Of a stretch of 23,475 nt of DNA, positions 21 through 23,475 are shown piece after piece. The notes beneath the pieces are model-generated. The model ran no database searches, was not told the origin of the DNA, and was given only the letters and a program-made list of their open reading frames with translations. The stretch spans positions 1 through 23,475 of the forward strand of contig JABCSY010000062.1 of assembly GCA_018238625.1 (NCBI GenBank). Reading direction: 5' to 3'. Position numbers and translations under genes: made by a program. This stretch comes from Promethearchaeota archaeon (GTDB lineage: Archaea; Asgardarchaeota; Lokiarchaeia; Sigyniarchaeales; SOKP01). The stretch's first letter is position 1, and each line of letters begins with the position of its first letter.

Positions 21-217
21 ATTATTAACATACCAAGGTCTTAAAACTTAAGTTGTTAAGTTATCATTTTTATTAAAAATATGGAGTGTCTCGAAAATAA
101 GAAATTAATCTTTTTTTTTTTTTCAAATTTACATCTAATTTGACCCTATAATTCAAATTTTCTGGGATAATTTTAAATTATTAAAGGTTTAGTAGATTGA
201 ATATTAATTTGTGCTCA

Positions 218-739: not shown

Positions 740-887
740 TTAAGAAGCTACCCAAATATTATGTATTATATGATTTGATTTAGTATTTAATAAAATTATT
801 TATTAAAGGATTAATCTCTCTAGCTTTTGTAATTTATAACAATAGAAATTTGAATAAGAAAAAAGAGAAAATTATTTTTTATTATTT

Positions 888-2198: not shown

Positions 2199-2366
2199 AA
2201 AAAAAAGATAGACTTCGAATATTTAAAATTTTTTAATATCATACCTCCGAGAGAATATTAAATACACAAAAATTGATGTTTAGTTTTCTATAAGTCCATT
2301 ACAATAAATTTTTAAAAACATGCTCGATCTAATATTTAAAATTGTTCTAAGTTTAATGTGATTTGT

Positions 2367-2847
2367 TTGATATTGCAAACAGAATTTTGGTTTTTTAATT
2401 GAGTTGCAGAATCTGCGGGAATATTTGTCCTTATCACCGGATTCATTGCTCTAACTTGGCTTGGATTTGAAAGAAAACGAAGAGGATCGTTTTTAAAGAG
2501 AAAAACCGAAGAGGATAAAAAATTTGACATTACTAAATTTTTACGAGTGTTATCCTATCTTGGGTTAATCGTTGGTATCCTCGATGTTTGGGCTGGCGCT
2601 GCAGGTTTAATTTTAGACATCCCACCGAGCTTTAAATTGGATTAACCCTAAATTAGCTTTGATTATAATTTTCATTGTTGTTATGGCAGTAGTTGCACTT
2701 ACAGCAAAATTCTACATAAAAGCGTTGTAATTAATTTCTAAATTTCTCTCTTGGCCACCTGTTGCTTTCATCATAATGTTATTTAGTTTTGTCCAAGGAA
2801 TTCTACTCTGGGGATTTGGTCTAAGTATTTTCATGAATTTACTTTAA
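2367..2847 (+). pseudogene. Degraded membrane-protein gene
   Basis: The + strand reads LILQTEFWFFN*(TGA 2400)VAESAGIFVLITGFIALTWLGFERKRRG...GLILDIPPSF. A frame change near 2635-2641 continues WINPKLALIIIFIVVMAVVALTAKFYIKAL*(TAA 2728)LISKFLSWPPVAFIIMLFSFVQGILLWGFGLSIFMNLL*(2845-2847). A T13 tract follows. Confidence 0.75.
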
Positions 2848-2848
2848 A

Positions 2849-2861
2849 TTTTTTTTTTTTT
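2849..2861 (+). terminator. Oligo-T (T13) archaeal-type terminator
   Basis: The T13 run begins 2 nt after the final stop of the pseudogene. Confidence 0.5.
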
Positions 2862-3095
2862 AATCATCCTTGTGATAATAACTTCTAAACCTTATCAACT
2901 CAAATAGATCGTAGATAAAATGAATTGCCTTTATAAATAATTAATATTTATAGAAAAGTTTTATAAAAGAAAAAGAGATTTACAATATATAAGGTCGTAA
3001 TAATTAAGAAAAAATCTTATCAAAAACTTGAGATCCGAATAGAAAGCTTAAAAAAAGTTATATTTTAAATTTAAATATAGAAAAGGTGGGGAAAA

Positions 3096-3758
3096 GTTAG
3101 CATAGATTGGGAGCGTGCTGAATTGGCACCGCAAAAAAACCAGAAGGTAGAGGGTAGAATCTTATTAGATTTACGCGCAAAAATTAATGAATTAGAAAGA
3201 GACTTAGTTAAGTACAAAGAAGATCTAAGAAACAAAATAGAAGTTTTAAAAGAAACTCAAAATAAATTAAGTGGTAGAGAAAAAAGCCTTGTCAAAATTA
3301 GTGAAAAGTTTTCATCAGCTAAAAAGAATTTAGACGGTGTTTCTGAGGATAAATTAAATGTTGATATAGAATTAACAAGATTAAAGCCAAAATATGACGA
3401 AATTAAAGAAAAAGCGTTAAGAGCAAACGAAAATATTGAAAGATTAGAAAGTGAATTGAGGTTTTCGACAGAAAAAGTAGCCGAGATGGAACAAAAATTA
3501 ATATTCAAAGAAAAAGAGATAAAAAACAATAAAAACGATATGGAAAAAAGAAAAAACGAAATTGATGTCTTAAACGGAAAATTCAAAGAGAATCGAGAAG
3601 AAACAAAGGAATTGATTGATAAAATAAAATCTCTTGAAACTCAGCTTTCAGAAGTTAAAACATCACCTATGATTTTGGAACGAATAAGAGACGTAATGAT
3701 GCATAAAGGCTTTCTTGCCGATAGGGAACTCGATCTTATATTTAAGGAATTTGAGTAA
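3096..3758 (+). CDS. Coiled-coil protein, paralog A (start extended upstream of the TTG at 3123 in the ORF track)
   Basis: Long K/E-rich heptad region. In-frame upstream codons encode V-S-I-D-W-E-R-A-E, which align without gaps to the N-terminus of paralog B. C-terminal motif MMHKGFLADREL. Confidence 0.8.
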   Translation, partial: VSIDWERAELAPQKNQKVEGRILLDLRAKINELERDLVKYKEDLRNKIEVLKETQNKLSGREKSLVKISEKFSSAKKNLDGVSEDKLNVDIELTRLKPKYDEIKEKALRANENIERLESELRFSTEKVAEMEQKLIFKEKEIKNNKNDMEKRKNEIDVLNGKFKENREETKELIDKIKSLETQLSEVKTSPMILERIRDVMMHKGFLADRELDLIFKEFE

Positions 3759-3913
3759 TATAAGGATATTTTATAAATTTTTTATCTTGAAATCTATTTT
3801 TAAACTTGAATATTTACGATTAAAATATTAACTTGAAAAGATTAAATATCTTGTAGCATAAAAATATTAATATAAAAAATACAATAAAAAAAATTCGTAA
3901 TGGTGTGAGAAGT

Positions 3914-4666
3914 ATTTCGGTAGATTGGTCAAAAGCAACCGAGAAACCTGATAAAAAGCAAGCCGTAGAGGGGCGTTTTTTATTAGATCTTAGGTCAAAA
4001 ATTGATGATTTGGAACAAAAACTAAAACAAAAGGAACAAAAAATAGAGAAGTTATCTAAGGAACTAAATGGTACCAAGGAAAAATTATCAGAAAAAGAAA
4101 AAGATTTAACTGAAAAAATTCAAGAATTATCGAAGACTAAAATAGAAATAACCGCTATAAAAGAAGATTTAACCAATTATGAAGCAGAAATTAATAATTT
4201 AAAATCAAACAAATCTAGCTTAGAGCAGAATTTAGAAGCTGATAACGAAAAAATAAGAGATTTCGAAAGCAAATTAGATAATACCTTGAAGAAATTAGAG
4301 GAGTTAGAACCAAAAGTCGGGGGTCTAAAGGAAGACTACGAACAAAAAGAAAGAGAGCTCGAGGGCGTTAAAAAAGATCTACAGCAAACAATTTCAGATA
4401 AATATATTGAGATTGAAAGTTTGAAAAACGAATTGACTGACCAGATTAACACTAAGGAAAGTCAAATAATAGACGCCAAAAATGACCTTGAGGCAAAAAA
4501 CAAAGAAATTGAGGCGATTGAACTTAAAATTAATTCTTTAGAGGATTATATTGAAGAATCAAAAGGGGCGCCCCAAGTTATAGAAGGAATCAAGGAACTT
4601 ATGTCCCACAAAGGCTTTTTGAGTGACAAAGAGTTAGAAGACATCATCGACAAACATCAAGAATAA
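3914..4666 (+). CDS. Coiled-coil protein, paralog B (start either GTG 3905 or ATT 3914)
   Basis: Heptad-rich ORF with N-terminal motif SVDWSKA...VEGRFLLDLRSKI and C-terminal motif MSHKGFLSDKEL, both shared with paralog A. Confidence 0.8.
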   Translation: MSVDWSKATEKPDKKQAVEGRFLLDLRSKIDDLEQKLKQKEQKIEKLSKELNGTKEKLSEKEKDLTEKIQELSKTKIEITAIKEDLTNYEAEINNLKSNKSSLEQNLEADNEKIRDFESKLDNTLKKLEELEPKVGGLKEDYEQKERELEGVKKDLQQTISDKYIEIESLKNELTDQINTKESQIIDAKNDLEAKNKEIEAIELKINSLEDYIEESKGAPQVIEGIKELMSHKGFLSDKELEDIIDKHQE

Positions 4667-4787
4667 AAACTAAGCTCTTATATCTATTAATTTCTCTGGT
4701 AAATAATCTCTATGAAAATTCACTTTCGTAAGAAAGCGTTAAAAAAGTGCTTACTATATCATCAATTCCCGAGGAGATGTCATAAAA

Positions 4788-6071
4788 ATGGTCTACTTAG
4801 TCTTATTACAAACGTTATCGGCAGAAGAATTTTACATCTTATTTTTTAAAATTATCGTATCGTTTTTCTGTGGTTTTCTTATTGGGATCGAGCGCACAAG
4901 AGTAAGCGCGCAATATGGTGCCCGGGACCACATCTTTTTTTCTATGATTTCTACATCTTTAATTATATTACACGACAAATTTCTCCCCGTATCAGAGGGT
5001 TTTACGTTAATTATAATGTTTTTTGGAGGGATGATAGTTTTTCTATTGATCGGAAGCGTTTATAGATTGTTTCGCGAAAACGATCCCGGATATACTACTA
5101 CACTATCAATGATATTAGCTATGGTCGTTGGAACGATATGTTATTACAATGAATCCTTTGCCATTGTCATTTCCGTAATATTTTTAATTATTCTTTCCAC
5201 GAAAAAGCAATTTTATAAAATACGAAAATTAAAAGATGTTGAATGGACAGGAACAGTTGAATTTATAGCAATCGTAGTCTTGCTTTACATTTTGATTCCA
5301 GACAATTTTCTGATTTTTGAAATTAATGTTAAACCAATAGTATTAGTTTTCATTATAATTTTAGCTGTAAAATATTTTAGTTACTTTATACTAAGGAGCA
5401 CAAGTGAGAAAAATCTATACTATATTTCTTTTTTAGGAGGTTTTGCTCATAGTGAAGCTACAACCGTTGAATTAGCTGAAGCTGGCGCGTCATCCTCAGC
5501 TGTTTGGCTAGTAATTCAGACTATGTTAATTAGAATGATAATCGTTTTAATGATTACTCCTACTTTACTATTCTATGCCTTGTTCCCAATTCTAATCACA
5601 TCTTTTATTGGATTAATCGGGTCATTTTTAATATTAAGAAAAAAAGAAACTCAATTAACTTTAGATAAAATCAAAAACCCTCTCTCAATTAAAGGCGCTT
5701 TAATCTTTTCGGGAACATATCTAATTGGTTTAATAATATCGATCGTTTTGAGTTTTTTTGAAATAAATATTTTTGCTTATTATATTATTGTGTTTGTGAT
5801 CGGTTTTCTTTCCGGTGGTGCGTCCTCTCTGTTTGTAGCAACAGCATTTTATAAATCCTTAATTAACGAAGGGAATGCATTAGTGATGTTAAGCATTGGT
5901 TTATCGGCTGCGATAATAAATAAGATCTTCTATTCAACTCGAGCATTGAAGGAAGATAAAAATAAAAAAGTATATGTCATTCATCTCGTCTTTTACATCG
6001 TCATAACTATTTTTCTGTTAATCACGATGACCTTTTTAACGATAATTACATCCAATTTATCAATCTTCTGA
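4788..6071 (+). CDS. MgtC/SapB family membrane protein with C-terminal DUF4010-like domain
   Basis: GFLIGIER...GARDH and PGYTT match the MgtC signature (GxxIGxER...GxRT, GxTT). LGGFAHSEATT and NPLSIKGALIF match DUF4010-type motifs. SD GAGGAG at 4771-4776. Confidence 0.8.
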   Translation: MVYLVLLQTLSAEEFYILFFKIIVSFFCGFLIGIERTRVSAQYGARDHIFFSMISTSLIILHDKFLPVSEGFTLIIMFFGGMIVFLLIGSVYRLFRENDPGYTTTLSMILAMVVGTICYYNESFAIVISVIFLIILSTKKQFYKIRKLKDVEWTGTVEFIAIVVLLYILIPDNFLIFEINVKPIVLVFIIILAVKYFSYFILRSTSEKNLYYISFLGGFAHSEATTVELAEAGASSSAVWLVIQTMLIRMIIVLMITPTLLFYALFPILITSFIGLIGSFLILRKKETQLTLDKIKNPLSIKGALIFSGTYLIGLIISIVLSFFEINIFAYYIIVFVIGFLSGGASSLFVATAFYKSLINEGNALVMLSIGLSAAIINKIFYSTRALKEDKNKKVYVIHLVFYIVITIFLLITMTFLTIITSNLSIF

Positions 6072-8774: not shown

Positions 8775-9194
8775 TTATAATTTTAAATAACCATTTAAAA
8801 ATTCTTGGAACTTAGTTTTAACTTCTATAGAAATATGATGTTCCATTTCACACGACAACTCCTTAATGAGTTTGATATCTTTAATTTTTAAAACTTTTTT
8901 GAAAAAGATTTCCAATATAGCTTTTGTTTCACTTAAATGCTGAGCAATTAGTTTTCCTTCTTTAGTTAGTCTAATTGGACTTCTCGGTTTCCATACTATT
9001 AAATTATTCTCTTTTAGTTTATATAAAATTCCACTTACGCTTGCTGGATTAACATTTAATTTTTCTGCAATTTCTTTGTTATTAACCCACGCTCCTTTTT
9101 TAGTGAGAGAAATTGCATAGATTTCGCATAGATACCTCTGGTATGTTTCTGGTACATCATATATCGAGAGGTTAGCTTTATTCTTGTTGTTCAT
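8775..9194 (-). CDS. DtxR/MntR-family transcriptional regulator (wHTH plus dimerisation domain, no FeoA/SH3 domain)
   Basis: HTH VNNKEIAEKLNVNPASVSGILYKL, wing IRLTKEGK, and SCEMEHH in the dimerisation domain. Confidence 0.88.
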   Translation of the reverse strand: MNNKNKANLSIYDVPETYQRYLCEIYAISLTKKGAWVNNKEIAEKLNVNPASVSGILYKLKENNLIVWKPRSPIRLTKEGKLIAQHLSETKAILEIFFKKVLKIKDIKLIKELSCEMEHHISIEVKTKFQEFLNGYLKL

Positions 9195-9218
9195 AATAAT
9201 AAGTTTTTTTTTAAAAAT

Positions 9219-9228
9219 AAAAAAAAAA
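9219..9228 (-). terminator. Oligo-T (T10 on minus strand) terminator of the feoAB operon
   Basis: A10 run on the + strand directly beyond the stop of ORF 9231..9713. Confidence 0.45.
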
Positions 9229-9230
9229 GT

Positions 9231-9713
9231 TTATTTTAAATAATTATCTCTATTTTTCCACAATAACATTATGTAAATCGACCCGATTCCAAGAAAGATT
9301 TCTGTTCGTATGCCTTCTGTAAAGATAAAGTCTTCCCATACAGTAATATCTACGAGACCTTGCAGAGCAAAATCGACCAAATTAGCAATCCATTCAATAG
9401 CAAATAAAGTTCCGATTCCCAAAGCTAAAATTCCTGCTCCAATTAAAAACCCAAATCCAGAGAGAGTTCCTTGTTTTATTTGTGGAACGCCATAAAGGAA
9501 TATCACGGCAATTAATAAATTAATTAACGCTTTAGCTAAATGATCTAGAAATGAACTCTCCCATATTGCATCACCTGGCGAAGAAAATAGGAAAATTAAT
9601 GGTTCTTCTAATGGTATGTGTATAAATTCTACTATTGAAACAATTAAGAAGGCAACTCCGAATAATAATGCTACAATACTAAAAGAAGATCGTTTTAATT
9701 CTATGATTTCCAT
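9231..9713 (-). CDS. Feo-associated membrane protein of unknown function (about 4 TM helices)
   Basis: 160-aa hydrophobic ORF whose ATG (9713) directly abuts the feoB stop (9714-9716). Confidence 0.8.
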   Translation of the reverse strand: MEIIELKRSSFSIVALLFGVAFLIVSIVEFIHIPLEEPLIFLFSSPGDAIWESSFLDHLAKALINLLIAVIFLYGVPQIKQGTLSGFGFLIGAGILALGIGTLFAIEWIANLVDFALQGLVDITVWEDFIFTEGIRTEIFLGIGSIYIMLLWKNRDNYLK

Positions 9714-11759
9714 TTAGAAATAGACACCTCCAATTAAATTGATTATCAACGCTAAAATGTAACCTAAACCTATACCATAAGTAGCAGAAACTAAAGCCCA
9801 TTTTTTTGAGCCGGTTTCTTTATATACAGCACCTATATGAGCAACACATGGAGTATACAGCAAAACAAATACAAGATATCCGTATACTAATGCAGGCATG
9901 GCAGCAACAGCAACAGCACCGGGTACTGCTAAATTATCGAATACAAATTGACCCAATCCTGCTGGTTCTTCTTCACCGGTTAAAATCAATCCAAACGCTG
10001 CTACAACAACTTCTTTAGCTAAAAATCCAAAAACAATTCCGATAGCAGCAATCCAGCTCCATTTTAGTGGTGCAAATAAAGGTTGAAAGAACTTTCCAAC
10101 TCCAGCAAGCAAGGAGTATTCAGGATCAACGCCCCATGCTAATGTCCCTGTATTAGGATCAATTCCAAAACTTTGGAGAAGCCACATAATAACGACAACA
10201 GCAAAAATTATCGTTCCTGCTTTCTTAATAAATTCTCTTCCTCGTTCCCACATGTGAATTCCAGTGTATTTTGCTGTAGGCATGCGATAATCCCCTAATT
10301 CTAATATAAATGGAGATGTTTCACCTTTAAAAACTACTTTACGGAAAAATAACGCTAGCAATATTGCAATGACGATTCCAAGAGCATATAAACTAAATAT
10401 TATTGTACCAGTTGAGGCGTTTCCTAATACATATCCTCCTAATAAAACATAAACAGGTAATCTTGCGCCACAAGAAATATTTTGATTAACCATAATTGTA
10501 GTTAAACGATCTTGTTCGTTTTCTATAGCCCTACAAGACATAACTGCGGGAATATTACATCCAAACCCCAACATCATTGAAACAAAAGACCTTCCGTGTA
10601 GACCGAGTTTATACATTAAACGATCCATGTTAAAAGCAGCTCGAGCCAAGTATCCAGAGTCTTCTAGAAAAGATAAGACCAAAAACATCGTAAATATTAA
10701 AGGTACGAATCCTAAAACGGCCCCAAAACCTCCAAATATCGCTTCATTTATGAAAGATTTTATGAAAGCTATCCACCAAATGTCTTCAGGTATACCAGAG
10801 GTTAGCAATGGAAGCCATTCTTCAAATATTAATCCAACTAGAGTTATCATTGGAGCTGATGCCCTAAAAGTGATTTCAAACATCCCCCACATTATCAACA
10901 AAAAGATCGGAATTCCGAAATATTTGTTTAAAAAGACTCTATCTAATATATCTGAAGATGTGACCACTCCTTTTTCTCGCTTGTATGTTTCTTTAATAAT
11001 TTCTCCGATTTTATTATATCTCTCACCCGCTAAATCGAATTCTTCAGTACCAGATAAAATCCGCTTCATTTTTTCCTCGACAACTATTCCTCCATCAAAA
11101 GTATACAATTCTTTTTTAACTTCTTTATCGTTTTCAATGAGTTTTATTGCAGCCCATCTTCTTTTATCAGAAAGGAATTTAGGAAGATTATTTTCAAGGA
11201 TTTCTGTAGCTTTTTTTATTTTCTCCTCTAACTCGCTAGAATAATGAATAATTTCAACGCTTTTTCTTGCTAATTTATTATCTTTAACATAGCTTTCGAT
11301 TGTATTTCTTGCTTCTTTTATGCCTTTACTTTTGATTGCTACTGTTGGTATAACAGGAGCTCCCATTAACTGTGATAATCGCTCAACATCAATGTTAATT
11401 TTTCTTTTTTCTGCTGCATCCATCAAATTTAATATAAAAATCACCGGGATTCCTAGTTCTTTCAATAAAAATGCTAGATAAAGATTTCTTTCTAAATTCG
11501 TTGCGTCTAAGATATCGACAATTAAATCAGGTTTTTCATTTACAATAAAATTTCTGGCAATCATCTCATCAATAGCAGCCGGAGATAAAGAATAGACACC
11601 TGGAAGATCGATTACTTCAATATTTCCCATTTTACCTGTTTTCTTTTCCACAGTAACTCCAGGCCAGTTTGCAACATGACCAGTTTCTCCAGTTAATTCG
11701 TTAAAAAACACTGTTTTTCCAACATTTGGATTTCCAATTAACGCTAAACTTTTAGACAT
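9714..11759 (-). CDS. feoB: Ferrous iron transporter B
   Basis: G1 GNPNVGKT, G2 NWPGVTV, G3 DLPG, G4 NLMD. Membrane motifs LEDSGYLAR, GFGCNIPA and YTPCVA. The start is placed at MSKS (11759) because a GAGGT SD lies about 10 nt upstream and the 11795 start would overlap feoA. Confidence 0.97.
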   Translation of the reverse strand: MSKSLALIGNPNVGKTVFFNELTGETGHVANWPGVTVEKKTGKMGNIEVIDLPGVYSLSPAAIDEMIARNFIVNEKPDLIVDILDATNLERNLYLAFLLKELGIPVIFILNLMDAAEKRKINIDVERLSQLMGAPVIPTVAIKSKGIKEARNTIESYVKDNKLARKSVEIIHYSSELEEKIKKATEILENNLPKFLSDKRRWAAIKLIENDKEVKKELYTFDGGIVVEEKMKRILSGTEEFDLAGERYNKIGEIIKETYKREKGVVTSSDILDRVFLNKYFGIPIFLLIMWGMFEITFRASAPMITLVGLIFEEWLPLLTSGIPEDIWWIAFIKSFINEAIFGGFGAVLGFVPLIFTMFLVLSFLEDSGYLARAAFNMDRLMYKLGLHGRSFVSMMLGFGCNIPAVMSCRAIENEQDRLTTIMVNQNISCGARLPVYVLLGGYVLGNASTGTIIFSLYALGIVIAILLALFFRKVVFKGETSPFILELGDYRMPTAKYTGIHMWERGREFIKKAGTIIFAVVVIMWLLQSFGIDPNTGTLAWGVDPEYSLLAGVGKFFQPLFAPLKWSWIAAIGIVFGFLAKEVVVAAFGLILTGEEEPAGLGQFVFDNLAVPGAVAVAAMPALVYGYLVFVLLYTPCVAHIGAVYKETGSKKWALVSATYGIGLGYILALIINLIGGVYF

Positions 11760-11775
11760 TTTTTTCTTTACCTCA

Positions 11776-11994
11776 TTAAAGTATTTCAACCTCAATTAAT
11801 TTACATTCGGATTTCCGTAGACTAAGATTGTAGTTTTTGATTTCTAATTCTAAAGGATCTCCTAAAGGCGAAGCTCGAATTACTTGTATTAATTCACCTG
11901 GAAGTACTCCCATTTTACCAACAATACTGCCTATTGATTTTTCAACAGAAATAATTCTAGCTTTTGTGTTAAATGGTAAGTCAGTTAAATTCAT
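11776..11994 (-). CDS. feoA: Ferrous iron transport protein A
   Basis: 72 aa with the SH3-like FeoA signature MGVLPG...SPLGDPLE...LSLRKSE, directly upstream of feoB. Confidence 0.95.
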   Translation of the reverse strand: MNLTDLPFNTKARIISVEKSIGSIVGKMGVLPGELIQVIRASPLGDPLELEIKNYNLSLRKSECKLIEVEIL

Positions 11995-12035
11995 TTAATT
12001 CAGACCTTACATTTTTCTTTTTTTTTTTTTATAAA

Positions 12036-12049
12036 TTAGGTATGCCTAA
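12036..12049. promoter_or_regulatory. DtxR/SirR-type operator TTAGG-TATG-CCTAA upstream of feoA
   Basis: Palindrome with perfect 5-bp arms, matching the TTAGG-N4-CCTAA core known for DtxR-family (SirR/MntR) boxes. Two DtxR-family genes are in the locus. Confidence 0.8.
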
Positions 12050-12082
12050 AAAGGCAAATTATAGTTACAAAAGAAACTATTG

Positions 12083-12100
12083 TTTTTAAATCTTATCTTT
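12083..12100 (-). promoter_or_regulatory. Putative BRE/TATA of the feoAB operon
   Basis: The minus strand reads AAAGATAAGA-TTTAAAAA, about 35 nt upstream of operator 1. Confidence 0.45.
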
Positions 12101-12183
12101 GAATTGCAGTAATTATTTGTAGATCTTTAATTTAACTTTCAGATTATAGATTTAAATTTATAATTTGGTCATAGATTGAATAC

Positions 12184-12196
12184 AAAAGATTTATAT
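12184..12196 (+). promoter_or_regulatory. Putative BRE/TATA of the feoC-like/dtxR operon
   Basis: AAAAGA-TTTATAT lies about 16 nt upstream of operator 2, so the predicted transcription start falls inside the operator. Confidence 0.5.
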
Positions 12197-12211
12197 CTAT
12201 TCAAAGAGTTT

Positions 12212-12235
12212 ATAATTTAGGTATAACTAAATTAT
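12212..12235. promoter_or_regulatory. Second DtxR-type operator ATAATTTAG-GTATAA-CTAAATTAT
   Basis: 24-bp palindrome with one mismatched pair. Its core TTAGGTATAACTAA matches operator 1 at 12 of 14 positions. Confidence 0.8.
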
Positions 12236-12259
12236 TTTAAAAACAAAAGAAAATATGAA

Positions 12260-12562
12260 ATGAATAAAATTAACTCAAATTTATACATTAAAGTCATTCG
12301 GAAGATCATAGAAAAGGGTGTGTCTAGTCCTCATTTTATTGCTCAATCTTTAGAGATATCTGAAGAATTATTAAATGTGGTAATACATTCACTATTAGAA
12401 AAGGGATATTTAAACTACATCGATGATAAAGAGTTTAAAAAGGAAGCGTCGTTACATTGTAAGTTTTGCCCTTATGCTAAAGATTGTTCTGAAAATCTAC
12501 CTTCTGTTTTTTATGAACTATCGGAAAAAGGAAAAAATATCACAAAAAATTATAATAATTAA
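12260..12562 (+). CDS. FeoC-like winged-helix protein with a Cys cluster
   Basis: HTH IAQSLEISEELLNVVIHSLLEKGYL, a CKFCPYAKDC insert in the wing, then YELSEKG. Located in the feo locus. Confidence 0.8.
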   Translation: MNKINSNLYIKVIRKIIEKGVSSPHFIAQSLEISEELLNVVIHSLLEKGYLNYIDDKEFKKEASLHCKFCPYAKDCSENLPSVFYELSEKGKNITKNYNN

Positions 12563-12581
12563 AACAAGGATTTTACAAAAT

Positions 12582-13265
12582 ATGCCAAAATTAAGCAACA
12601 AAAGAAATAGAAGAAGGTTTAATAGAAGAGAAAAAGAAATGAATTATCATCTTAACTTAAATAAAAATAATAGTTACCATTATAAACATGAAAATTTTAA
12701 GGAATTAGAAGAAGATCTACTGAAAGTTATTTATAAAGGAAAAGATCATAAGGTATCAAATAAATATTTAACCGAATTCTTCAATAAAAGAAATGTACCA
12801 TCTCATAGAATTATAAAACATTTACATAGAAATGCTTTTTTACATTTTTATAATAATTCTGTTTCTCTTACTCCAAATGGGATATTAATTGCTAAAGAAA
12901 TACAGAAAAGGCATAATAAGATAGAGAATTTTATAAAAGGAAAAGGAATGGTCTGTGATGCTCATGAGATGGCTCATATCCTTGAACATGAGCTCACTAC
13001 AGAAACCATTCAAAAAATTATAAAAGCATCAGAATTAAAAGAGAAAGGAAGACCTTTAATTAACTTTTTATTACCATTTGGGACAATTGTTGGTTTAGAT
13101 TTGCCTAATTGTAAAGTCTGGACGAAATTGATAAGTATTGGGATATTTCCAGGTCAAAAAATCCATATTATTGAGAGAAATTCAACTAATTTTCTAATTG
13201 AAGTAAAAAATAGTAGAGTAGCTATAGATAAAATCCTAGCAAACGGTATACTCTTAATTCCTTGA
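12582..13265 (+). CDS. DtxR-family metal-dependent regulator with C-terminal FeoA/SH3 domain (divergent N-terminus)
   Basis: LTPNG...KRHNKIE...AHILEH, and FeoA-like LISIGIFPGQKI...RVAID. The start is probably ATG 12582 (AAGGA upstream) or 12639, not 12423. Confidence 0.82.
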   Translation: MPKLSNKRNRRRFNRREKEMNYHLNLNKNNSYHYKHENFKELEEDLLKVIYKGKDHKVSNKYLTEFFNKRNVPSHRIIKHLHRNAFLHFYNNSVSLTPNGILIAKEIQKRHNKIENFIKGKGMVCDAHEMAHILEHELTTETIQKIIKASELKEKGRPLINFLLPFGTIVGLDLPNCKVWTKLISIGIFPGQKIHIIERNSTNFLIEVKNSRVAIDKILANGILLIP

Positions 13266-13324
13266 AATATCACACCTACCTCCAATTTAACATTTGCTAA
13301 AAGAAAGTTTTTCAAATAGTTTAA

Positions 13325-14218
13325 TCAAGGATTATTCTTGATAAATTCTACAATAACTTCTGCCAGTTCAGGACCTTTATCTTCTTGAACAAAATGGCTT
13401 GCGTTTTTAATTGTTATATGATTTTGTCCAACAGCTCCAGGAACGAGCGCTTGCCAAAACCTATCGCCTCCTCGAGTAATTGGATCCTTATCAGAAAACG
13501 CTGTTAAAAAGGGTTTTTTCCATTGTTTAAAAAGTTCAATAGCTTTTTTATTCGCTTCGTGCTCCGGATCATCGATACTTATTGGAACTAAAGACGGTAG
13601 TATCCGAGCGCCAGCTTTAAAAGAATCGTCAGGAAAAGGCGCGTCATACCCATTTAAAACCTCTTTAGACAATTTAGTGGTGGTTCCACCCTGTATAATA
13701 AATTTGATGTCAAAAGAAGGTGAATTTCTAGAAAACTCCCGCCAATTAGTAAAAGCCTCAGACATCCTTTGTTCACCGGTTGGTAACCCCCCATTTGATA
13801 AAACTATTCTATTAAACCGATCCTGATTTTCAATAGCAAGCCTTAAACCTATTAAAGATCCCCAATCTTGACAAAATAAGGTAATGCTTTGAAGATCGAG
13901 TAGTTGTAGCCATTTTGTCATCCATTCTACATGTTTAAGATATGTGTGGTCGTTTTGTTCAGTTGGTTTGTCTGAACGGCCAAATCCTACTAAATCTGGC
14001 GCTATAATTCTAAATCCTGCTTTCACCAGAATAGGAATCATATGTCTATATAAAAAACTCCATGATGGTTCACCATGCATTAATAAAATGATGTCTACTT
14101 GTTTAGGTCCCTCGTCTAAATAGTGGATTTTGATTCCATCTACTTCAATAAAATGTGGTTCAAATGGAAAGTCGGGGAGGTTATCAAACCTCTCTTCAGG
14201 TGTGTTTAATAATTTCAT
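13325..14218 (-). CDS. Haloalkane dehalogenase (alpha/beta hydrolase, HLD-I-like)
   Basis: TPEERF, HGEPSWS, PDLVGFGRSDKP, nucleophile elbow CQDWG, catalytic acid DPIT and ASHFVQED. Confidence 0.92.
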   Translation of the reverse strand: MKLLNTPEERFDNLPDFPFEPHFIEVDGIKIHYLDEGPKQVDIILLMHGEPSWSFLYRHMIPILVKAGFRIIAPDLVGFGRSDKPTEQNDHTYLKHVEWMTKWLQLLDLQSITLFCQDWGSLIGLRLAIENQDRFNRIVLSNGGLPTGEQRMSEAFTNWREFSRNSPSFDIKFIIQGGTTTKLSKEVLNGYDAPFPDDSFKAGARILPSLVPISIDDPEHEANKKAIELFKQWKKPFLTAFSDKDPITRGGDRFWQALVPGAVGQNHITIKNASHFVQEDKGPELAEVIVEFIKNNP

Positions 14219-18699: not shown

Positions 18700-21069
18700 A
18701 TGGAATGCAAATTCTGCGAAAGTCAAAACATTTCTTTTACCTGTGAGAAATGCAAGTCAAGTTTTTGCATCCATCATATGGCTACAACGGAAAGCTGGCT
18801 CTGTAAAAAGCATGGAATACACTATTCAAAAGCAAGCGCCGCTGAAAAGTTTTATAAATGTACCGTTATTGAAAATAGTACGTGCCCTGAGTGCGAAGCG
18901 CTTTTAAGGTTAGAGAGACTGTCGTCTGGTCAATATTATTTAGAGTGCACGGATGAAACTTGTGCCTGGAACTCCTATTTAAAATCCCCCGGCTTATTTT
19001 TTCCTACTAAAGAACAATTAGCAAGAGAAGCAACTAAGTATAATTTAATTAAAGGATATCGGTTAAATTTATGTCGTAGGTCTTTAAAAAGGATAATCGG
19101 AAAAGAAGTTTGTCCTAATTGCTTTTTAGAATTTTTAAAGAGAGCACCAATCGCTAACTTCTCTACGATTATAGAGTCTTTTAATATATCCGCCCAACAA
19201 ATGATAAAATTAATTAATCGATACATCGACGAAGAGCGAATATATGGCATAATTGATCAGAAGGACCAAATGTTTTATTACATTTCGTACGAGATGAGAG
19301 AAAAAATTCTTTCAAAAATACAAAATAAGGGTATTTTGAAAGTAGCTGATTTAGCCGCCATGCTTGACATGAGTTCTGAAATAGCCATTAAAGTCATATA
19401 TAAATTAATAAGTCAATTTCAGATAAAAGGTTCATTCTCACAAACTAAGCATTTTTATTACACTCAAAAACATATTATGGATAATTTAATCAAAGAAATA
19501 AATAAAAAGGGAAGGATTTCGTTAGATAAGCTTGCGAAAGTTTTCGATATTCCAAAGGAACTATCAAAATCATTTTGCGTCAATTTAATGAGAACTAATG
19601 CCGTTACCGCGTTTTTTGCTGATCGTGGCAACGAAATTATTACATCTGATAGAATTTATAAAGAAATTAAAGATTTTTCTAAAGAAAACGGATTGTTTGA
19701 ACTAAATAAGCTTGCAAAAAAGTTAAAGATCGCAGTAGAACTCGCGAGGAAATCGCTCCACGACCTTATCAAATCGGGTTCGGTAAAAGGAATTTTCACT
19801 CAAAGAAGAGAATTTATGACGCGAAAATACCTTGAGGATAAAATAAAAGAACTAGCAAGAGCATATAGAACTATGCCTTTGAGAGAATTATCGAATCGAT
19901 TGGGGGTAACTGAATCCAGTATAGAAGAAAATCTAGCTCAATTAATTGGGAGGGGCGACATTGATGGTTACATTGACATGCATAAGAGAATTTTTATGGC
20001 TTATAGCGTCCCTCGAACACAAACAGGATCAACTCGCACGAAACAGAAAAAACCACAATCAATTGACGGGGGTAAAATTGAGGTTGTAAGGGATTACGAT
20101 TTTGAAGGTGGACAGTTACATTTCAAAGTAGCCGTTAGAAATAAGAGCAGTATGGCGATTAATAACGTTAAAGTTCTATTGGACGCACCCTCAAGTTATA
20201 AGATAAAACAACCATTAATTAATATACCTGTTATTGAAGCTAATAATAGTAGGGGAGTTGATTTTTATCTTGAACCAAAACAATGCGGAACATCGTCGAT
20301 CGGGGGTGATGTTATCTATAAGGACGCCCAAGGCACCAAGCACACTTTATATATCAAAAAAAGAGATGTAGAAATCAAATGTCCCTTAGTTTGCACTTCT
20401 ATGAGTACAATAGAGGATTGTCAAGTCGCAATACAAACTTTAGGAAACGACGCACGAGCGTTTTTAATCGCCGACTTAGATCCGCGATTAGCTTTTAGAG
20501 GAGCAATAAGAACTCTAAAAAACTTTGACACCAGCGCTGTTACTTCCCATGAAGGTTCAGATGCTAAAGGAAATTACGAAGGAGAGGCGTGGTTTTGTTC
20601 GGAAGCAAAAAATACTGGAGGGAGAATTATAACGAGAATTTACGTTTCCGAGATGAGTCAATCGTTAGAAGTAAGAGTCTGGTGTGGAAACCCAGGACAG
20701 CTTACAGGATTTTTAGCAAAAATTATCGAAATTCTCTTTGAGGAAATTAATATCATTCGGAAGATTAAGTCCGAAGAAAGGGAGAAAACCATTGATATTA
20801 TGGCAATCACTCAAAACTTAGCAGAAGTTAGCGATTATTGTATGCTAAGATGGAAAGCGCAGAATATAAGAAATAAACTACACGATACTTTTATTCGATT
20901 ACGTAAAGTAATAGGAGAAAAAGAAGCGATCTTAGGTAGAATTGAGTTTTGGTTGACACAGTTGAATAAGTACGGCAAAGACGATAAAATTAGCGATGAG
21001 GACGCCGATAAACTGGTGAACGATGTTGAAAAATTCAAAAACATTATTGCTCGAGCCATAAAATTGTGA
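18700..21069 (+). CDS. Multidomain protein: zinc fingers, five tandem winged-helix (PCI/DDRGK1/UFL1-like) repeats, adaptin-appendage-like Ig and platform domains, helical tail
   Basis: 789-aa ORF with GGAG SD. It has 16 candidate Cys/His ligands in aa 3-141, ~60-aa repeats in aa 141-436, a beta sandwich in aa 459-560 and an alpha/beta domain in aa 565-680. Domain calls are by motif recognition. Confidence 0.75.
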   Translation: MECKFCESQNISFTCEKCKSSFCIHHMATTESWLCKKHGIHYSKASAAEKFYKCTVIENSTCPECEALLRLERLSSGQYYLECTDETCAWNSYLKSPGLFFPTKEQLAREATKYNLIKGYRLNLCRRSLKRIIGKEVCPNCFLEFLKRAPIANFSTIIESFNISAQQMIKLINRYIDEERIYGIIDQKDQMFYYISYEMREKILSKIQNKGILKVADLAAMLDMSSEIAIKVIYKLISQFQIKGSFSQTKHFYYTQKHIMDNLIKEINKKGRISLDKLAKVFDIPKELSKSFCVNLMRTNAVTAFFADRGNEIITSDRIYKEIKDFSKENGLFELNKLAKKLKIAVELARKSLHDLIKSGSVKGIFTQRREFMTRKYLEDKIKELARAYRTMPLRELSNRLGVTESSIEENLAQLIGRGDIDGYIDMHKRIFMAYSVPRTQTGSTRTKQKKPQSIDGGKIEVVRDYDFEGGQLHFKVAVRNKSSMAINNVKVLLDAPSSYKIKQPLINIPVIEANNSRGVDFYLEPKQCGTSSIGGDVIYKDAQGTKHTLYIKKRDVEIKCPLVCTSMSTIEDCQVAIQTLGNDARAFLIADLDPRLAFRGAIRTLKNFDTSAVTSHEGSDAKGNYEGEAWFCSEAKNTGGRIITRIYVSEMSQSLEVRVWCGNPGQLTGFLAKIIEILFEEINIIRKIKSEEREKTIDIMAITQNLAEVSDYCMLRWKAQNIRNKLHDTFIRLRKVIGEKEAILGRIEFWLTQLNKYGKDDKISDEDADKLVNDVEKFKNIIARAIKL
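19120..20007 (+). repeat. Five protein-level winged-helix repeats of about 60 aa (180 nt)
   Basis: GILKVADLA (aa 211), GRISLDKLA (271), GLFELNKLA (331) and RTMPLRELS (390). Wings IYGIID (181), IKGSFS (242), VTAFFA (302), VKGIFT (362) and IDGYID (421). Confidence 0.8.
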
Positions 21070-21766: not shown

Positions 21767-23475
21767 ATGATTGAAAAAGAAGACAATATATACCGAAAGC
21801 TACAACAGCAATTAGATACTTTACCCATAGGCTTTCCTGCGACGAAATCAGGCGTAGAAATTCGATTGTTAAAATTTTTCTTTACTCTTGAAGAAGCAGA
21901 AATTGCTATTAACATGCGATTTATACCCGAATCTGTGAAAAAGATTTATCGTAGGGTTAAAAAAATAGTAAAATCCGTAGAAGAACTTAAGCACATTTTA
22001 GACAGAATGTATCATAAAGGTGCTATCAATCTAAAGAGAGAGATGGACGAAAATGGGGAAGAGATACTATATCACCTCGCCTTTTTAGCAGTAGGCATGT
22101 ATGAATATCAAGTAAAGTCGATTACAAAAGAATTTTATGAAGATATCGAGCTATACTTTGAAGAGGAATACCGAGATGAAATCGTAAGCACTAAAATCAA
22201 CCAATTACGAACTATTCCAGTTGAAGAAAGCATCACGCCAGAACACAATATTGCCACATACGACGAACTAAAAACAATAATTAAAAATACAGAGAAGATC
22301 GCTATAATGGATTGCATATGCCAAAAAGGGAAAGATCTAATCGGCGAATCGTGTAAACAGACGAATATACGCGAGCACTGCTTCGCTCTAAATAATTCTG
22401 CTCAACATGTCGTAGATATAAATAACGGAAGATTTATAACTAAGGATGACGCTTTAAACACACTTAAAAAAGCGCAAGAAGAAGGCTTAATTCTTCAACC
22501 TGGAAACGCTCAAGATCCGAATTTCATTTGTTGTTGTTGTGGATGTTGTTGCGATCTTATAACAAATTTAAAGAAACTTGAACGCCCTTGGGAAATGTTT
22601 TATTCTAATTATTACGCTACTGTTGATTCAGGCTCATGTATCGGCTGTGAAACCTGTTTAAATCGGTGTCAAATGGATGCTATTTCGATGGTCGAAGGTT
22701 TAGCCGTTGTTGAGCAAAAATTATGTATCGGGTGTGGTAATTGCGTAACAACTTGCCCAGAACAAGCAATAACGCTCGTAAGGAAAGATAAGGAGATGAT
22801 ACCTCCCAATACTACAACAGATTTATACTTAAAAATAATGGATAAAAAAGATAGAATAATACTAAGTTTGACACATGATAACCAAGAAATATCTCAAGAA
22901 GAAATCGCTAAAAAAATCCATCTATCCCAACCTTCCGTTGCTATACGTATCAAAAAACTCAAGGAGCGAGGATTTATTGATCGTATTATTGGTGTGAATC
23001 TAAATAAAGTTGGATTAAGCGTAGCGATGGTACAAGTAACGTCTACCAATACCGCCAGAGTTTTGAATGTGCTCCGTGATTGCCCGTTTTTCTTAAATGG
23101 ATTTGTTATATCAGGAAAAGAAAATTTAGTTCTTAAAAGACAAATGCAAGATACTCATAATGAAATGGTTCAAGCACAGATCAAACAGGCTTCTCTAGTG
23201 AAGTCTATGAGGGACGCATGGGTTTCTGCCATATCAGCTATGAATACTGGAATGGGTGGTTTTACAGAAATTATAATGAATGCTGAGACAAATACCGCTC
23301 AAATTCAGCAGTTAGATGGTGCGGTTAGATCATCTGTTAGTGGAGCGTATTCTGCTAGAGATGCTTTTGGAAGAGTTATAGAAGATGTTGGTTTTGCAGG
23401 TTCTGAAGTTATGAATCAGTTTGGAGATATAGTAGGCAGAGGAGGCAGGCAACTTTATGAAACAGCCTATACAAC
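21767..23475 (+). CDS. 4Fe-4S dicluster protein (21767 to ~22849), continuing in frame into an Lrp/AsnC fragment and an unrelated segment; 3'-partial, no stop in the window
   Basis: Translated by hand: MIEKEDNIYRKLQQQLDTLPIGFPATKSGVE...CICQ...ICCCCGCCC...CIGCETCLNRCQ...CIGCGNCVTTCP...PPNTTTDLYLKIMDKK, then open for 569 codons to the window end. Probably absent from the ORF track because it has no stop. Confidence 0.85.
   Translation, partial: MIEKEDNIYRKLQQQLDTLPIGFPATKSGVEIRLLKFFFTLEEAEIAINMRFIPESVKKIYRRVKKIVKSVEELKHILDRMYHKGAINLKREMDENGEEILYHLAFLAVGMYEYQVKSITKEFYEDIELYFEEEYRDEIVSTKINQLRTIPVEESITPEHNIATYDELKTIIKNTEKIAIMDCICQKGKDLIGESCKQTNIREHCFALNNSAQHVVDINNGRFITKDDALNTLKKAQEEGLILQPGNAQDPNFICCCCGCCCDLITNLKKLERPWEMFYSNYYATVDSGSCIGCETCLNRCQMDAISMVEGLAVVEQKLCIGCGNCVTTCPEQAITLVRKDKEMIPPNTTTDLYLKIMDKKDRIILSLTHDNQEISQEEIAKKIHLSQPSVAIRIKKLKERGFIDRIIGVNLNKVGLSVAMVQVTSTNTARVLNVLRDCPFFLNGFVISGKENLVLKRQMQDTHNEMVQAQIKQASLVKSMRDAWVSAISAMNTGMGGFTEIIMNAETNTAQIQQLDGAVRSSVSGAYSARDAFGRVIEDVGFAGSEVMNQFGDIVGRGGRQLYETAYT
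22838..23134 (+). other. Lrp/AsnC-family regulator segment, C-terminally truncated, embedded in frame in the terminal ORF
   Basis: MDKKDRIILSLTHDNQEISQEEIAKKIHLSQPSVAIRIKKLKERGFI is an Lrp HTH, followed by VNLNKVGL...CPFFLNGFVISGKENL. The RAM domain breaks off after the SG turn. Confidence 0.8.

Follow-up and report, generated by a model that had tools for sequence, protein, structure and literature searches.

A single-chain homologue of the DDRGK1/UFL1 winged-helix rod of the UFM1 ligase in a putative Promethearchaeota adaptor

The UFM1 ligase is an unusual E3, in that its winged-helix (WH) rod is built from two proteins, each of which provides half of one domain. Whether a continuous version of this backbone exists in archaea is the question raised by a locus on contig JABCSY010000062.1 of a Promethearchaeota archaeon (assembly GCA_018238625.1), of which a stretch of 23,475 nucleotides, hereafter referred to as the window, was analyzed. 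A first-pass annotation had read positions 19120–20007 as a tandem WH array with junctions of the DDRGK1/UFL1 type, and had suggested that the array may resemble the backbone which eukaryotes split between these two proteins. The array corresponds to residues 141–436 of the predicted protein P0001, whose translation spans positions 18700–21066 on the forward strand (Table 1). Kinship of such a rod with DDRGK1/UFL1 is already known from databases and papers. Asgard proteins that combine UFL1, adaptin and Vps28 modules were described by Liu et al. (2020, bioRxiv 10.1101/2020.10.19.343400) and Makarova et al. (2024, PMC10936438), and an Asgard origin of UFL1/DDRGK1 was proposed by Picchianti et al. 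(2023); the supplementary text of PMC10183829 makes no mention of Asgard. P0001 shares the domain combination of the described proteins (E3-UFM1-ligase/HTH-PCI, adaptin appendage and a Vps28-C-like bundle) and is a member of this class.

Table 1 Features of P0001 and its conserved neighbours, with positions in the window
Feature	Positions	Strand	Basis and remarks
DsbD_2-like membrane protein, conserved neighbour upstream of P0001	17780..18484	+	Pfam, 39.5 bits
Putative adaptor gene P0001, 789 aa	18700..21069	+	ORF list and translation; zinc modules, five WH, appendage, helical bundle
Predicted zinc-binding region, residues 1–140	18700..19119	+	Cys/His conservation, alignment of 15 orthologs
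WH1, residues 141–196	19120..19287	+	PCI 26.3, DDRGK 24.2 bits; best counterpart is the full DDRGK1 WH
WH2, residues 197–256	19288..19467	+	Complete WH where eukaryotes have the composite pWH'/pWH, favoured register
Helix 2-helix 3 turn of WH2, residues 222–225	19363..19374	+	DDRGK1 alignment stops at 221, UFL1 alignment starts at 224
WH3, residues 257–316	19468..19647	+	Aligned to UFL1 WH1, favoured register
WH4, residues 317–375	19648..19824	+	Aligned to UFL1 WH2; most basic repeat, net charge +7
WH5, residues 376–436	19825..20007	+	PCI-type WH closing the array; PCI 37.1 bits, E 3.7e-9
Basic, poorly conserved linker, residues 437–459	20008..20076	+	Mean identity 0.43, net charge +5
Adaptin/COPI-type appendage	20077..20685	+	Beta-sandwich 460–559, alpha/beta platform 564–662; model pLDDT 87.4
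Helical bundle, residues 665–788, Vps28 C-terminal-domain-like	20692..21063	+	Pfam VPS28 (PF03997), marginal score
Weakly NikR-like (RHH + NikR_C) protein, conserved neighbour downstream of P0001	21156..21581	+	

An AlphaFold2 model of residues 141–440, based on a 23-row alignment (mean pLDDT 92.1, pTM 0.76), contains five consecutive WH units, each with the order helix-strand-helix-helix-strand-strand. No more than 0–2 residues separate the terminal strands of WH1 to WH4 (residues 191–194, 252–255, 312–315, and 371–374) from helix 1 of the unit that follows, which begins at residues 197, 256, 316, and 375, respectively. The five peptides cited in the first-pass annotation for direct wing-to-helix continuity and for a PCI-type end were all found in the translation (residues 182–215, 252–275, 306–323, 371–384, and 408–426), and the model bears out the continuity at all four junctions. 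The last unit, WH5, is also the most PCI-like of the five, and two profile searches of the PDB matched it to CSN4 (1ufm) at E 0.15 and 0.04. In the model it is preceded by WH4 and not by the helical-repeat part of a PCI domain, which is absent there. WH4 itself reached 22.1 bits with Ribosomal_S25, which is below the cut-off. The rod as a whole carries a net charge of +14 (pI 9.5). Internal repetition was assessed by comparing the Smith-Waterman score of each repeat pair with 500 shuffles. Five of the ten pairs (WH1-2, 2-3, 2-4, 3-4, and 4-5) scored above chance, with at most two of the 500 shuffles reaching the observed score. For the pair WH1-WH4 the observed score was reached in 22 of 500 shuffles, and the pairs WH1-3, WH1-5, WH2-5, and WH3-5 were at chance level (144–316 of 500).

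Searches with the whole protein against the three Pfam families to which the first-pass annotation had pointed all exceeded the respective cut-offs. PCI scored 80.8 bits over five stretches (cut-off 22), E3_UFM1_ligase (PF09743) 67.1 bits (cut-off 23.2; residues 225–435 on profile positions 22–235 of 272), and DDRGK (PF09756) 63.1 bits over four stretches (cut-off 27.8). The DDRGK matches were confined to profile positions of about 99–188, which are the WH part, while positions 1–98 remained unmatched. The same three families were also found in the diverged orthologs P0122, P0123, and P0124 (53.3 bits with E3_UFM1_ligase for P0122). When a profile of 15 orthologs was compared with the PDB, an engineered DDRGK1-UFL1 fusion (8b9x_A) was matched at E 1.6e-14, with residues 142–348 collinear with residues 13–225 of the chain. 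The DDRGK1 and UFL1 motifs named in the first-pass annotation are present in an alignment of P0001 to 8b9x_A. The rod model likewise found 8b9x first in Foldseek (E 7.1e-15, TM 0.61 normalized to the query and 0.69–0.70 to the target, rmsd 4.6–4.8 Å), followed by UFL1 chains from 60S complexes at about 1e-12. Among solved structures, the DDRGK1-UFL1 fusion was the best match in sequence as well as in fold.

A better fit to the WH arrays of SelB, ESCRT-II or transcription factors, which would have spoken against this kinship, was seen neither in Pfam nor in the PDB profile search nor in Foldseek. SelB WH1–4 (1lva) followed at E 1.6e-6 with TM 0.23/0.26, about nine orders of magnitude behind 8b9x, and ESCRT-II at E 3.4e-4 with TM 0.23/0.30 (3cuq_B; about eleven orders behind) and at E 4.6e-3 (1xb4_C). 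No SelB or ESCRT-II chain was matched at E ≤ 1 by the 15-ortholog profile, and the ESCRT-II family EAP30 scored 14.1 bits against a Pfam cut-off of 26.8. The C-terminal WH1–4 of SelB and the subunits Vps22/25/36 share a tandem WH arrangement with P0001, but match it far more weakly. Sequence profiles and predicted structure both show homology of the rod with the scaffold that DDRGK1 and UFL1 form in the eukaryotic UFM1 ligase, and in P0001 it is present as a single chain.

Human DDRGK1 (UFBP1) and UFL1 (8b9x; 8ohd and 8qfc on the 60S subunit) share with P0001 tandem PCI-type WH domains, in which the wing leads directly into the next helix 1, and the sequence match is collinear through the DDRGK1-to-UFL1 junction. 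In the 15-ortholog profile search, DDRGK1 alone (217–296) aligned to residues 141–221 and UFL1 alone to residues 224–345. Residue 224 corresponds to UFL1 residue 27, at which the partial WH of UFL1 begins according to published accounts (PMC10702826, PMC9627666), and the Pfam E3_UFM1_ligase match starts at residue 225. As DDRGK1 extends to residue 221 and UFL1 resumes at 224, an intact archaeal WH would occupy the site of the eukaryotic composite WH. This unit, WH2, is complete in one chain in the model (helices 197–210, 215–222, and 226–240; strands 212–214, 244–246, and 252–255), with a pLDDT of 92–95 for each 10-residue block.

The register of the repeats is partly ambiguous. After removal of WH1, the profile still placed residue 224 on UFL1 residue 27, but DDRGK1 moved onto WH2, and a single sequence without WH1 aligned with a shift of one repeat (WH2 on the DDRGK1 WH) at 28.2 bits versus 28.4 bits unshifted. 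The WH3–5 segment likewise aligned in a shifted register, and the best Pfam DDRGK stretch in P0001 is 200–281. Single repeats could not be told apart by their position on the UFL1 profile, as WH2, WH3, and WH4 all fell on positions 115–170. Taken together, these comparisons favour rather than prove the register in which WH2 is the counterpart of the eukaryotic composite WH.

Several features set P0001 apart from the eukaryotic proteins. The archaeal rod is a single chain in which the WH at the split site is intact, and it has five WH domains whereas the eukaryotic scaffold, made of two chains, has seven. UFL1 begins with a partial WH that needs completion by DDRGK1 in an obligate heterodimer, which is not the case in P0001. 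UFL1 also has a WH4, a WH5 and a helical C-terminal region that are lacking in P0001, where a linker, the appendage and the Vps28-C-like bundle follow residue 436. Compared with DDRGK1, P0001 has a Cys/His-rich N-terminus instead of the transmembrane anchor and the long helix, and the DDRGK motif is lost, with IDQKDQ aligned where 8b9x_A has IDDRGK. The N-terminal helix of UFL1 (residues 1–25) binds UFC1 and is needed for ligase activity (PMC10702826); no counterpart was found in P0001, whose alignment to UFL1 starts at UFL1 residue 27. The P0001 loop at residues 222–225 is six residues shorter than that of the fusion, which already lacks UFL1 residues 1–26, and therefore leaves no space for this helix. 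The suggestion that the rod resembles a continuous version of the WH backbone split in eukaryotes is hence supported for the scaffold, without the ligase-specific parts. Among 24 shorter database relatives there was no evidence of natural split forms; at least nine of them carry “partial” in their names, and contigs shorter than 4 kb account for most of the remainder.

The rod is flanked by further modules on both sides. In the N-terminal region, C3, C6, C15, C18, C23, H26, C35, C54, C62, C65, C83, C125, C138, and C141 are invariant in the 15 orthologs, and H38 and C88 are kept in at least 90% of them. The type of the zinc modules yielded sub-threshold leads (Zn_ribbon_Top1, 11.4 bits; AN1 finger 1wfe, E 0.75), and zinc-module Atlas scores were 0.75–0.79 against a lead level of 0.9. 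On the C-terminal side, the linker (residues 1–21 of the C-terminal model) has a pLDDT below 50. The modelled appendage found COPI 9qpq_H (9.8e-10), beta2-adaptin 1e42 (5.6e-9), gamma-COP 1pzd (9.5e-9), alpha-adaptin 1w80 (1.1e-8), and BBS9 6vbu_9 (2e-7) in Foldseek, all with a probability of 1.0, while the Pfam families Alpha_adaptinC2 (15.3 versus 27.6 bits) and GAE (17.1 versus 27 bits) stayed below their cut-offs. It has the beta-sandwich followed by an alpha/beta platform that is common to the appendages of AP2 alpha/beta2 and COPI beta/gamma, and the alignment to BBS9 extended over 401 columns of the C-terminal GAE-platform-helical region known from BBS2/7/9, including the helical part. 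P0001 differs from the AP2, COPI and BBS proteins in having neither a trunk nor a beta-propeller, and the low TM values (0.23–0.40) and rmsd of 12–27 Å indicate that its subdomains are oriented differently. The bundle matched VPS28 at 25.3 bits in the whole protein and 29.2 bits as a fragment (cut-off 24.5; profile positions 87–182 of 188). The ortholog P0122 scored 29.4 bits, P0123 and P0124 had no match at E ≤ 1e-4, and the Vps28 structure 2j9w was matched by the 15-ortholog profile at E 0.56. The assignment of the bundle as Vps28-C is thus marginal, and the N-terminal core through which the ESCRT-I subunit Vps28 binds Vps23 is missing from P0001.

The P0001 family is conserved in Promethearchaeota. 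We found 80 related loci in Promethearchaeota genomes (66–97% identity) and 318 database relatives, the best 120 of which share 74–99% identity with P0001. The closest database cluster is 99% identical, and relatives carry names such as “PCI domain-containing” and “DUF2042 domain-containing”. Of the 80 loci, 74 have the DsbD_2-like gene upstream in the same orientation (73 of these within 600 bp), and 76 have the NikR-like gene downstream, likewise in the same orientation (73 within 600 bp). The latter scored 18.3 bits with NikR_C, below the cut-off, and matched NikR structures at E 0.0024. Since all 80 loci are close kin, this conserved synteny may merely reflect inheritance, and the DsbD_2-like, NikR-like and GT87 neighbours are uninformative with respect to ESCRT or ubiquitin-like systems.

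On balance, we consider it somewhat more likely than not that P0001, with its DDRGK1/UFL1-type rod, is a cytosolic adaptor, non-catalytic and ESCRT-0/I-like, and that the eukaryotic pair arose by fission. Judged by domain content and models, an ESCRT-linked adaptor without catalytic activity is the most likely role of the protein. The five PCI-type WH domains would form the stiff and basic central rod of a cytosolic Promethearchaeota adaptor of ~90 kDa, acting as a scaffold without catalysis and not as a UFM1 ligase. The rod and the zinc modules may hold a client or a large partner, short motifs would bring further partners to the adaptin-type appendage, and the Vps28-C-like bundle may couple the assembly to ESCRT-II/III. 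P0001 would then serve as an ESCRT-0/I-like cargo adaptor, a role already suggested for Asgard fusion proteins of this kind, and the DDRGK1/UFL1 pair would derive from the fission of such a chain within a WH domain. We infer each of these functional steps from domain kinship. Asgard proteins combining Vps28-C with an adaptin appendage and HTH/PCI domains have been described as “functional analogs of ESCRT-0” (Makarova et al. 2024 mBio, PMC10936438).

It is unlikely that P0001 is instead a true scaffold-type E3 for an Asgard ubiquitin-like protein (Ufm1-like or ubiquitin), with WH1-WH2-WH3 as the minimal ligase and the zinc modules in place of the E2-binding helix. The minimal eukaryotic ligase consists of WH1', the composite WH and WH1 (PMC9627666), which is the segment best matched here, Ufm1 homologues are reported from nine Asgard clades (PMC12962969), and the N-terminal Cys/His sites are invariant. 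However, the UFC1-binding helix has no counterpart, UFC1 is reported from eukaryotes only (PMC10183829), the zinc modules match known types only below threshold, and no UFM1, UBA5, UFC1 or other E1, E2 or Ubl gene was found within the 23-kb window.

A ribosome- or RNA-associated factor, whose basic rod would sit on the large subunit or on RNA in the way UFL1/DDRGK1 do on the 60S subunit while the appendage recruits others, appears slightly less probable still. It would fit the UFL1 chains from 60S complexes among the Foldseek matches, the positive charge of the rod and of WH4, and a similarity of residues 592–787 to NCBIfam “Sel_Asgard” (35.3 bits, below the cut-off of 132). The C-terminal region of UFL1 and the long DDRGK1 helix make up most of the ribosome clamp, but both are missing from P0001. 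The weak eS25-like matches of WH4 also agree with this role, but these and the SelB similarity (TM 0.23–0.26) are of a generic WH kind, and no ribosomal or translation genes occur near P0001 in the window.

A DNA-binding transcription regulator composed of tandem wHTH domains and zinc ribbons is very improbable: Lrp/ArsR family occurs among the automatic names of some database relatives, HTH_DeoR reached 25.0 bits with the whole protein (other HTH families E 0.005–0.3), and the zinc-ribbon leads are of the Top1 type, but PCI, DDRGK or UFL1 outscores the transcription-factor HTH families in every repeat (the best family for WH4 being Ribosomal_S25), the structural neighbours are UFL1 and DDRGK1, and the C-terminal half bears a trafficking-type appendage. 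We give just as little credence to a PCI- or ESCRT-II-type assembly subunit that oligomerizes via its WH sheets and has no special tie to UFL1/DDRGK1, as PCI is the top Pfam family and CSN, proteasome-lid and Vps25/Vps36 chains are among the Foldseek matches, but these matches (E 3e-4 to 7e-3, TM 0.18–0.30) contrast with those of 8b9x (7e-15, 0.61–0.70), EAP30 is below its cut-off, WH4 and not helical repeats precedes WH5, and the WH domains of UFL1/UFBP1 have themselves been placed in a PCI-like class (PMC9627666).

As databases and papers already record the general kinship, the gain over earlier work is incremental; locating the split between DDRGK1 and UFL1 on the WH array seems to be new relative to the accounts of Liu et al. 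(2020) and Makarova et al. (2024). Tentatively, the P0001 family could preserve the UFM1 ligase scaffold as it was before fission, although we regard this as doubtful. An ESCRT-linked Asgard rod would have been cut in the helix-turn-helix turn of a WH domain. Of the two fragments, the N-terminal one would have acquired a membrane anchor and the C-terminal one an E2-binding helix at its new free end. If true, this would explain the instability of DDRGK1 and UFL1 when each is alone, and the ancestral job of the rod would have been UFM1-independent client handling in membrane remodelling. A natural single-chain scaffold in the closest archaeal kin of eukaryotes would offer a simple origin by gene fission and a handle on the role of UFL1/DDRGK1 before UFM1 conjugation existed, and the rod may serve as a stable scaffold model that can be expressed in bacteria. 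For Asgard biology, it adds detail on one putative ESCRT-associated multidomain adaptor.

The tandem winged-helix (WH) array resides in a 789-residue protein and was divided here into five units (see table); the G+C content of the window is ~30%. An AlphaFold2 model of residues 141–440, obtained from a 23-row alignment (mean pLDDT 92.1, pTM 0.76), also consisted of five units, each with the order helix-strand-helix-helix-strand-strand. Helix 1 in this model begins 0–2 residues after the last strand of the preceding unit, in agreement with the first-pass annotation, which had described each wing as running directly into the next repeat; the five peptide strings quoted there were all found in the protein translation. 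Repeat likeness was above chance in five of the ten pairs (score reached by ≤2 of 500 shuffles) and borderline for WH1 and WH4 (22 of 500), and the four pairs at chance level in this shuffle test each joined WH1 or WH5 with a non-neighbour.

Coordinates of the array protein and of its parts (structural assignments outside the array from the predicted model)
Feature	Nucleotides	Residues	Strand	Remarks
ORF of array protein	18700–21069	789 in total	+	
WH array	19120–20007	141–436	+	
WH1		141–196	+	
WH2		197–256	+	
WH3		257–316	+	
WH4		317–375	+	
WH5		376–436	+	
Linker		437–459	+	basic, weakly conserved, low model confidence
Beta-sandwich		460–559	+	predicted
Alpha/beta platform		564–662	+	predicted
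Helical bundle		665–788	+	predicted

Relatives of the array protein stem almost exclusively from Promethearchaeota (Asgard) genomes. A word-indexed search retrieved 318 of them, the best 120 being ~789 residues long and 74–99% identical, under the names ‘PCI domain-containing protein’, ‘DUF2042 domain-containing protein’ or ‘hypothetical’. A relative is encoded in 123 stretches of species-representative genomes, 80 of which (66–97% identity) were kept. Of 1.84 billion cluster representatives searched exhaustively, 502 matched at E ≤ 0.001, including only three full-length orthologs with <50% identity (P0122, 46%; P0123, 43%; P0124, 40%); the majority of the remaining matches were confined to residues ~455–700. 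Contig DATKTW010000042.1 (locus L007), filed under Nanopelagicaceae bacterium, carries a full-length, 85% identical copy of the Asgard gene, probably through a binning error. The WH array, the appendage module or both recur in other architectures (P0134, P0137, P0142, P0150, P0171, P0189), for example with a double zinc ribbon and PCI, in arrays opening with DDRGK-like and then UFL1-like matches, or in very long proteins that also contain BNR or DUF11 domains. Rod and appendage are modules that are widely shuffled among proteins.

All three Pfam families named in the first-pass annotation scored above their cut-offs on the whole protein: PCI with 80.8 bits (cut-off 22), E3_UFM1_ligase with 67.1 (23.2; residues 225–435 on profile positions 22–235 of 272) and DDRGK with 63.1 (27.8). 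When the repeats were scanned one by one, PCI scored best for WH1 (26.3; DDRGK 24.2), WH2 (19.0; UFL1 18.8) and WH3 (19.0), and Ribosomal_S25 for WH4 (22.1; DDRGK 18.6, UFL1 17.6). WH5 reached 37.1 with PCI, which bears out the PCI-type end assigned to the last repeat. The top PDB sequence match of the single protein was 8b9x_A, an engineered human DDRGK1-UFL1 fusion (E = 5.5e-6, residues 142–344 versus chain 14–222), and a 15-ortholog profile (A2) raised this match to E = 1.6e-14 and 56.5 bits (142–348 versus chain 13–225). With the same profile, DDRGK1 by itself aligned to residues 141–221 (8ohd_C residues 217–296, E = 1.4e-5) and UFL1 by itself to 224–345 (E = 9.2e-4), and no ESCRT-II or SelB chain appeared at E ≤ 1 among all PDB sequences. 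Superposition gave the same picture, as 8b9x_A/B ranked first in Foldseek (E = 7.1e-15, TMq 0.61, TMt 0.69–0.70, rmsd 4.6–4.8 Å over 247–254 columns), followed by the UFL1 chains of complexes on 60S (1.1e-12 to 3.4e-11). SelB (1lva; 1.6e-6, TM 0.23/0.26), RNA polymerase III RPC82/RPC62 (yeast, human) and TFIIIC, and then ESCRT-II (3cuq_B; 3.4e-4, TM 0.23/0.30) and Vps25 (1xb4_C; 4.6e-3) came later. The array thus did not fit ESCRT-II, SelB or transcription-factor repeats better than DDRGK1/UFL1. It is near-certain that the single-chain WH rod is homologous to DDRGK1/UFL1.

As described in PMC9627666 and PMC10702826, the human complex contains seven PCI-like WH domains, and the first helix of each contributes to the backbone. 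UFBP1 (DDRGK1) ends in a full and a partial WH, UFL1 starts with a helix (1–25) and a partial WH (27–58), the partial domains of both proteins form one composite WH, and the crystallised fusion DDRGK1:207-305-UFL1:27-200 has four WH domains. On the archaeal chain, DDRGK1 aligns as far as residue 221 and UFL1 from 224 onward (Pfam UFL1 match from 225); in the model, this place is the WH2 turn between helix 2 (215–222) and helix 3 (226–240). Because the two alignments meet in this turn, an intact archaeal WH sits where the composite domain is. The register is not unique, since the repeats are alike. Without WH1, the single sequence shifted by one repeat (WH2 on the DDRGK1 WH, WH3 on the composite WH, WH5 on UFL1 WH2) with 28.2 bits versus 28.4 for the unshifted register, and a WH3–5 query also adopted the shifted one. 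With a profile lacking WH1 (A4), UFL1 residue 27 was still aligned to residue 224 in 8ohd_A, 8qfc_B, 8c0d_A and the fusion; DDRGK1 fell on WH2 and half of WH3, at a total score of 44.2 bits instead of 56.5. The Pfam DDRGK match spans WH1 and half of WH2 in the three diverged orthologs, and the best DDRGK stretch in the window's protein is 200–281. As these register tests disagree, WH2 is favoured, but not proven, as the counterpart of the composite WH. The part of the first-pass proposal that concerned an unsplit backbone stood in both registers: the chain runs on unbroken at the point of the eukaryotic split.

The rod is rigid, with zinc modules before it and an appendage plus helical bundle after it. 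Among the Cys/His of residues 1–140, 14 are invariant in the 15-ortholog alignment and 2 more are nearly so, a pattern compatible with three or four putative zinc sites. The model of residues 437–789 (pLDDT 87.4, pTM 0.78) matched appendage domains best in Foldseek (COPI 9qpq_H, 9.8e-10; beta2-adaptin, gamma-COP, alpha-adaptin), with low TM-scores of 0.23–0.40, and the appendage is the most conserved portion of the protein. BBSome BBS9, BBS2 and BBS7, which ranked after the appendage domains, share in their C-terminal part the beta-sandwich, platform and helical order of residues 460–788 (20077–21063); their matches had E-values of 2e-7 to 2.6e-5 over 349–414 columns at TM-scores of merely 0.18–0.23. 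The bundle fell on Pfam VPS28 positions 87–182 barely above the cut-off (25.3 versus 24.5 bits), with weak support from diverged orthologs and the PDB. Platform and bundle (residues 592–787, 20473–21060) also aligned with positions 2–194 of 195 of NCBIfam NF045535 ‘Sel_Asgard, putative selenocysteine system protein’, far under its cut-off (35.3 versus 132 bits). Asgard selenocysteine gene clusters may therefore include a free-standing paralog of this module.

We lean slightly toward reading the protein as an ESCRT-linked, non-ligase WH-rod scaffold or adaptor homologous to DDRGK1/UFL1; the functional part of this reading is tentative and perhaps less likely than not. The protein would be a scaffold or adaptor and not a UFM1 ligase, in which rod and zinc modules would keep hold of a client or of a large partner, the appendage could be a hub for partners with short motifs, and the Vps28-C-like bundle might contact ESCRT-II/III. 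These roles of rod, appendage and bundle follow the published reading of such Asgard fusions: Makarova et al. (PMC10936438) propose that Vps28-C, where it is combined with HTH/PCI domains and an adaptin appendage, may yield ‘functional analogs of ESCRT-0’, and Hatano et al. (PMC9192718) report Asgard Vps28-Vps22 contacts in two-hybrid. A true Ubl ligase scaffold is unlikely, despite the kinship of the rod. The UFC1-binding N-terminal helix of UFL1, which ligase activity requires (PMC10702826), had no counterpart in the 8b9x_A alignments, and the loop of the archaeal chain has six residues fewer than the junction of a fusion from which this helix is already missing. Whereas UFL1 has WH4/WH5 and a C-terminal region, and DDRGK1 a membrane anchor and a long helix, all of these are absent from the archaeal protein, the DDRGK motif is not retained, and no E1, E2 or ubiquitin-like gene was found in the window. 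According to Picchianti et al., UFC1, UFM1, UFSP2 and C53 were seen in eukaryotes alone; later, Koestlbacher et al. (PMC12962969) described homologues of Ufm1 from nine clades of Asgard archaea. A role as ribosome or RNA factor, for which the rod is suitably basic (net charge +14), is quite improbable, with SelB well behind DDRGK1/UFL1. A DNA-binding regulator built on the WH repeats is highly improbable, transcription-factor HTH families scoring below the best families for every single repeat. Equally improbable is a PCI or ESCRT-II-type subunit, notwithstanding the PCI score: CSN and proteasome-lid subunits matched the rod at 2e-3 to 7e-3, and ESCRT-II EAP30 stayed below its Pfam cut-off (14.1 versus 26.8 bits).

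In 74 of the 80 loci, the array gene is immediately preceded on the same strand by one for a DsbD_2-like membrane protein, and in 76 a weak NikR-like gene follows it immediately (73 within 600 bp in each case); two GT87 glycosyltransferase genes farther upstream each occur in 66. None of these conserved neighbours points to ubiquitin-like or ESCRT systems. Because all 80 loci are close relatives, their conservation may reflect inherited order and not functional linkage. Between a fucose-isomerase-like gene and the first GT87 gene, the window carries a ~5.5 kb insert (8775–14218) with a DtxR-like repressor, a 160-aa ORF, FeoB, a DtxR-C/FeoA protein and an alpha/beta hydrolase; the gap is 5742 bp here versus a median of 168 bp (range 78–5423) in the 38 loci with both flanks. 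None of the 80 loci contained a match to the Feo and DtxR genes. Two ORFs that overlap in different frames (12260–12562 and 12423–13265, +) precede and form the DtxR-C/FeoA gene, whose DtxR-type N-terminal DNA-binding part may have been displaced through a frameshift or a wrongly called start. The ORF at 21767–23473 (+), which runs past the window end, combines a 4Fe-4S dicluster protein with AsnC/HTH_24 (residues 358–404) and an unmatched tail. Homologs in 25 loci match until ~residue 361 in 23 cases and never beyond 364, and it may be a read-through or a two-gene fusion in this genome.

Within its family, which is already described and of known kinship, the gene is unexceptional, and PF09743, PF09756 and PF01399 are already attached to the array protein in databases. 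An Asgard chain intact through the split site was not found in the literature available, which covers subscription papers incompletely; the Appendix figures of Picchianti et al. may show it. The modest new detail is that the Asgard chain is unbroken at the site where eukaryotic DDRGK1 and UFL1 are split.
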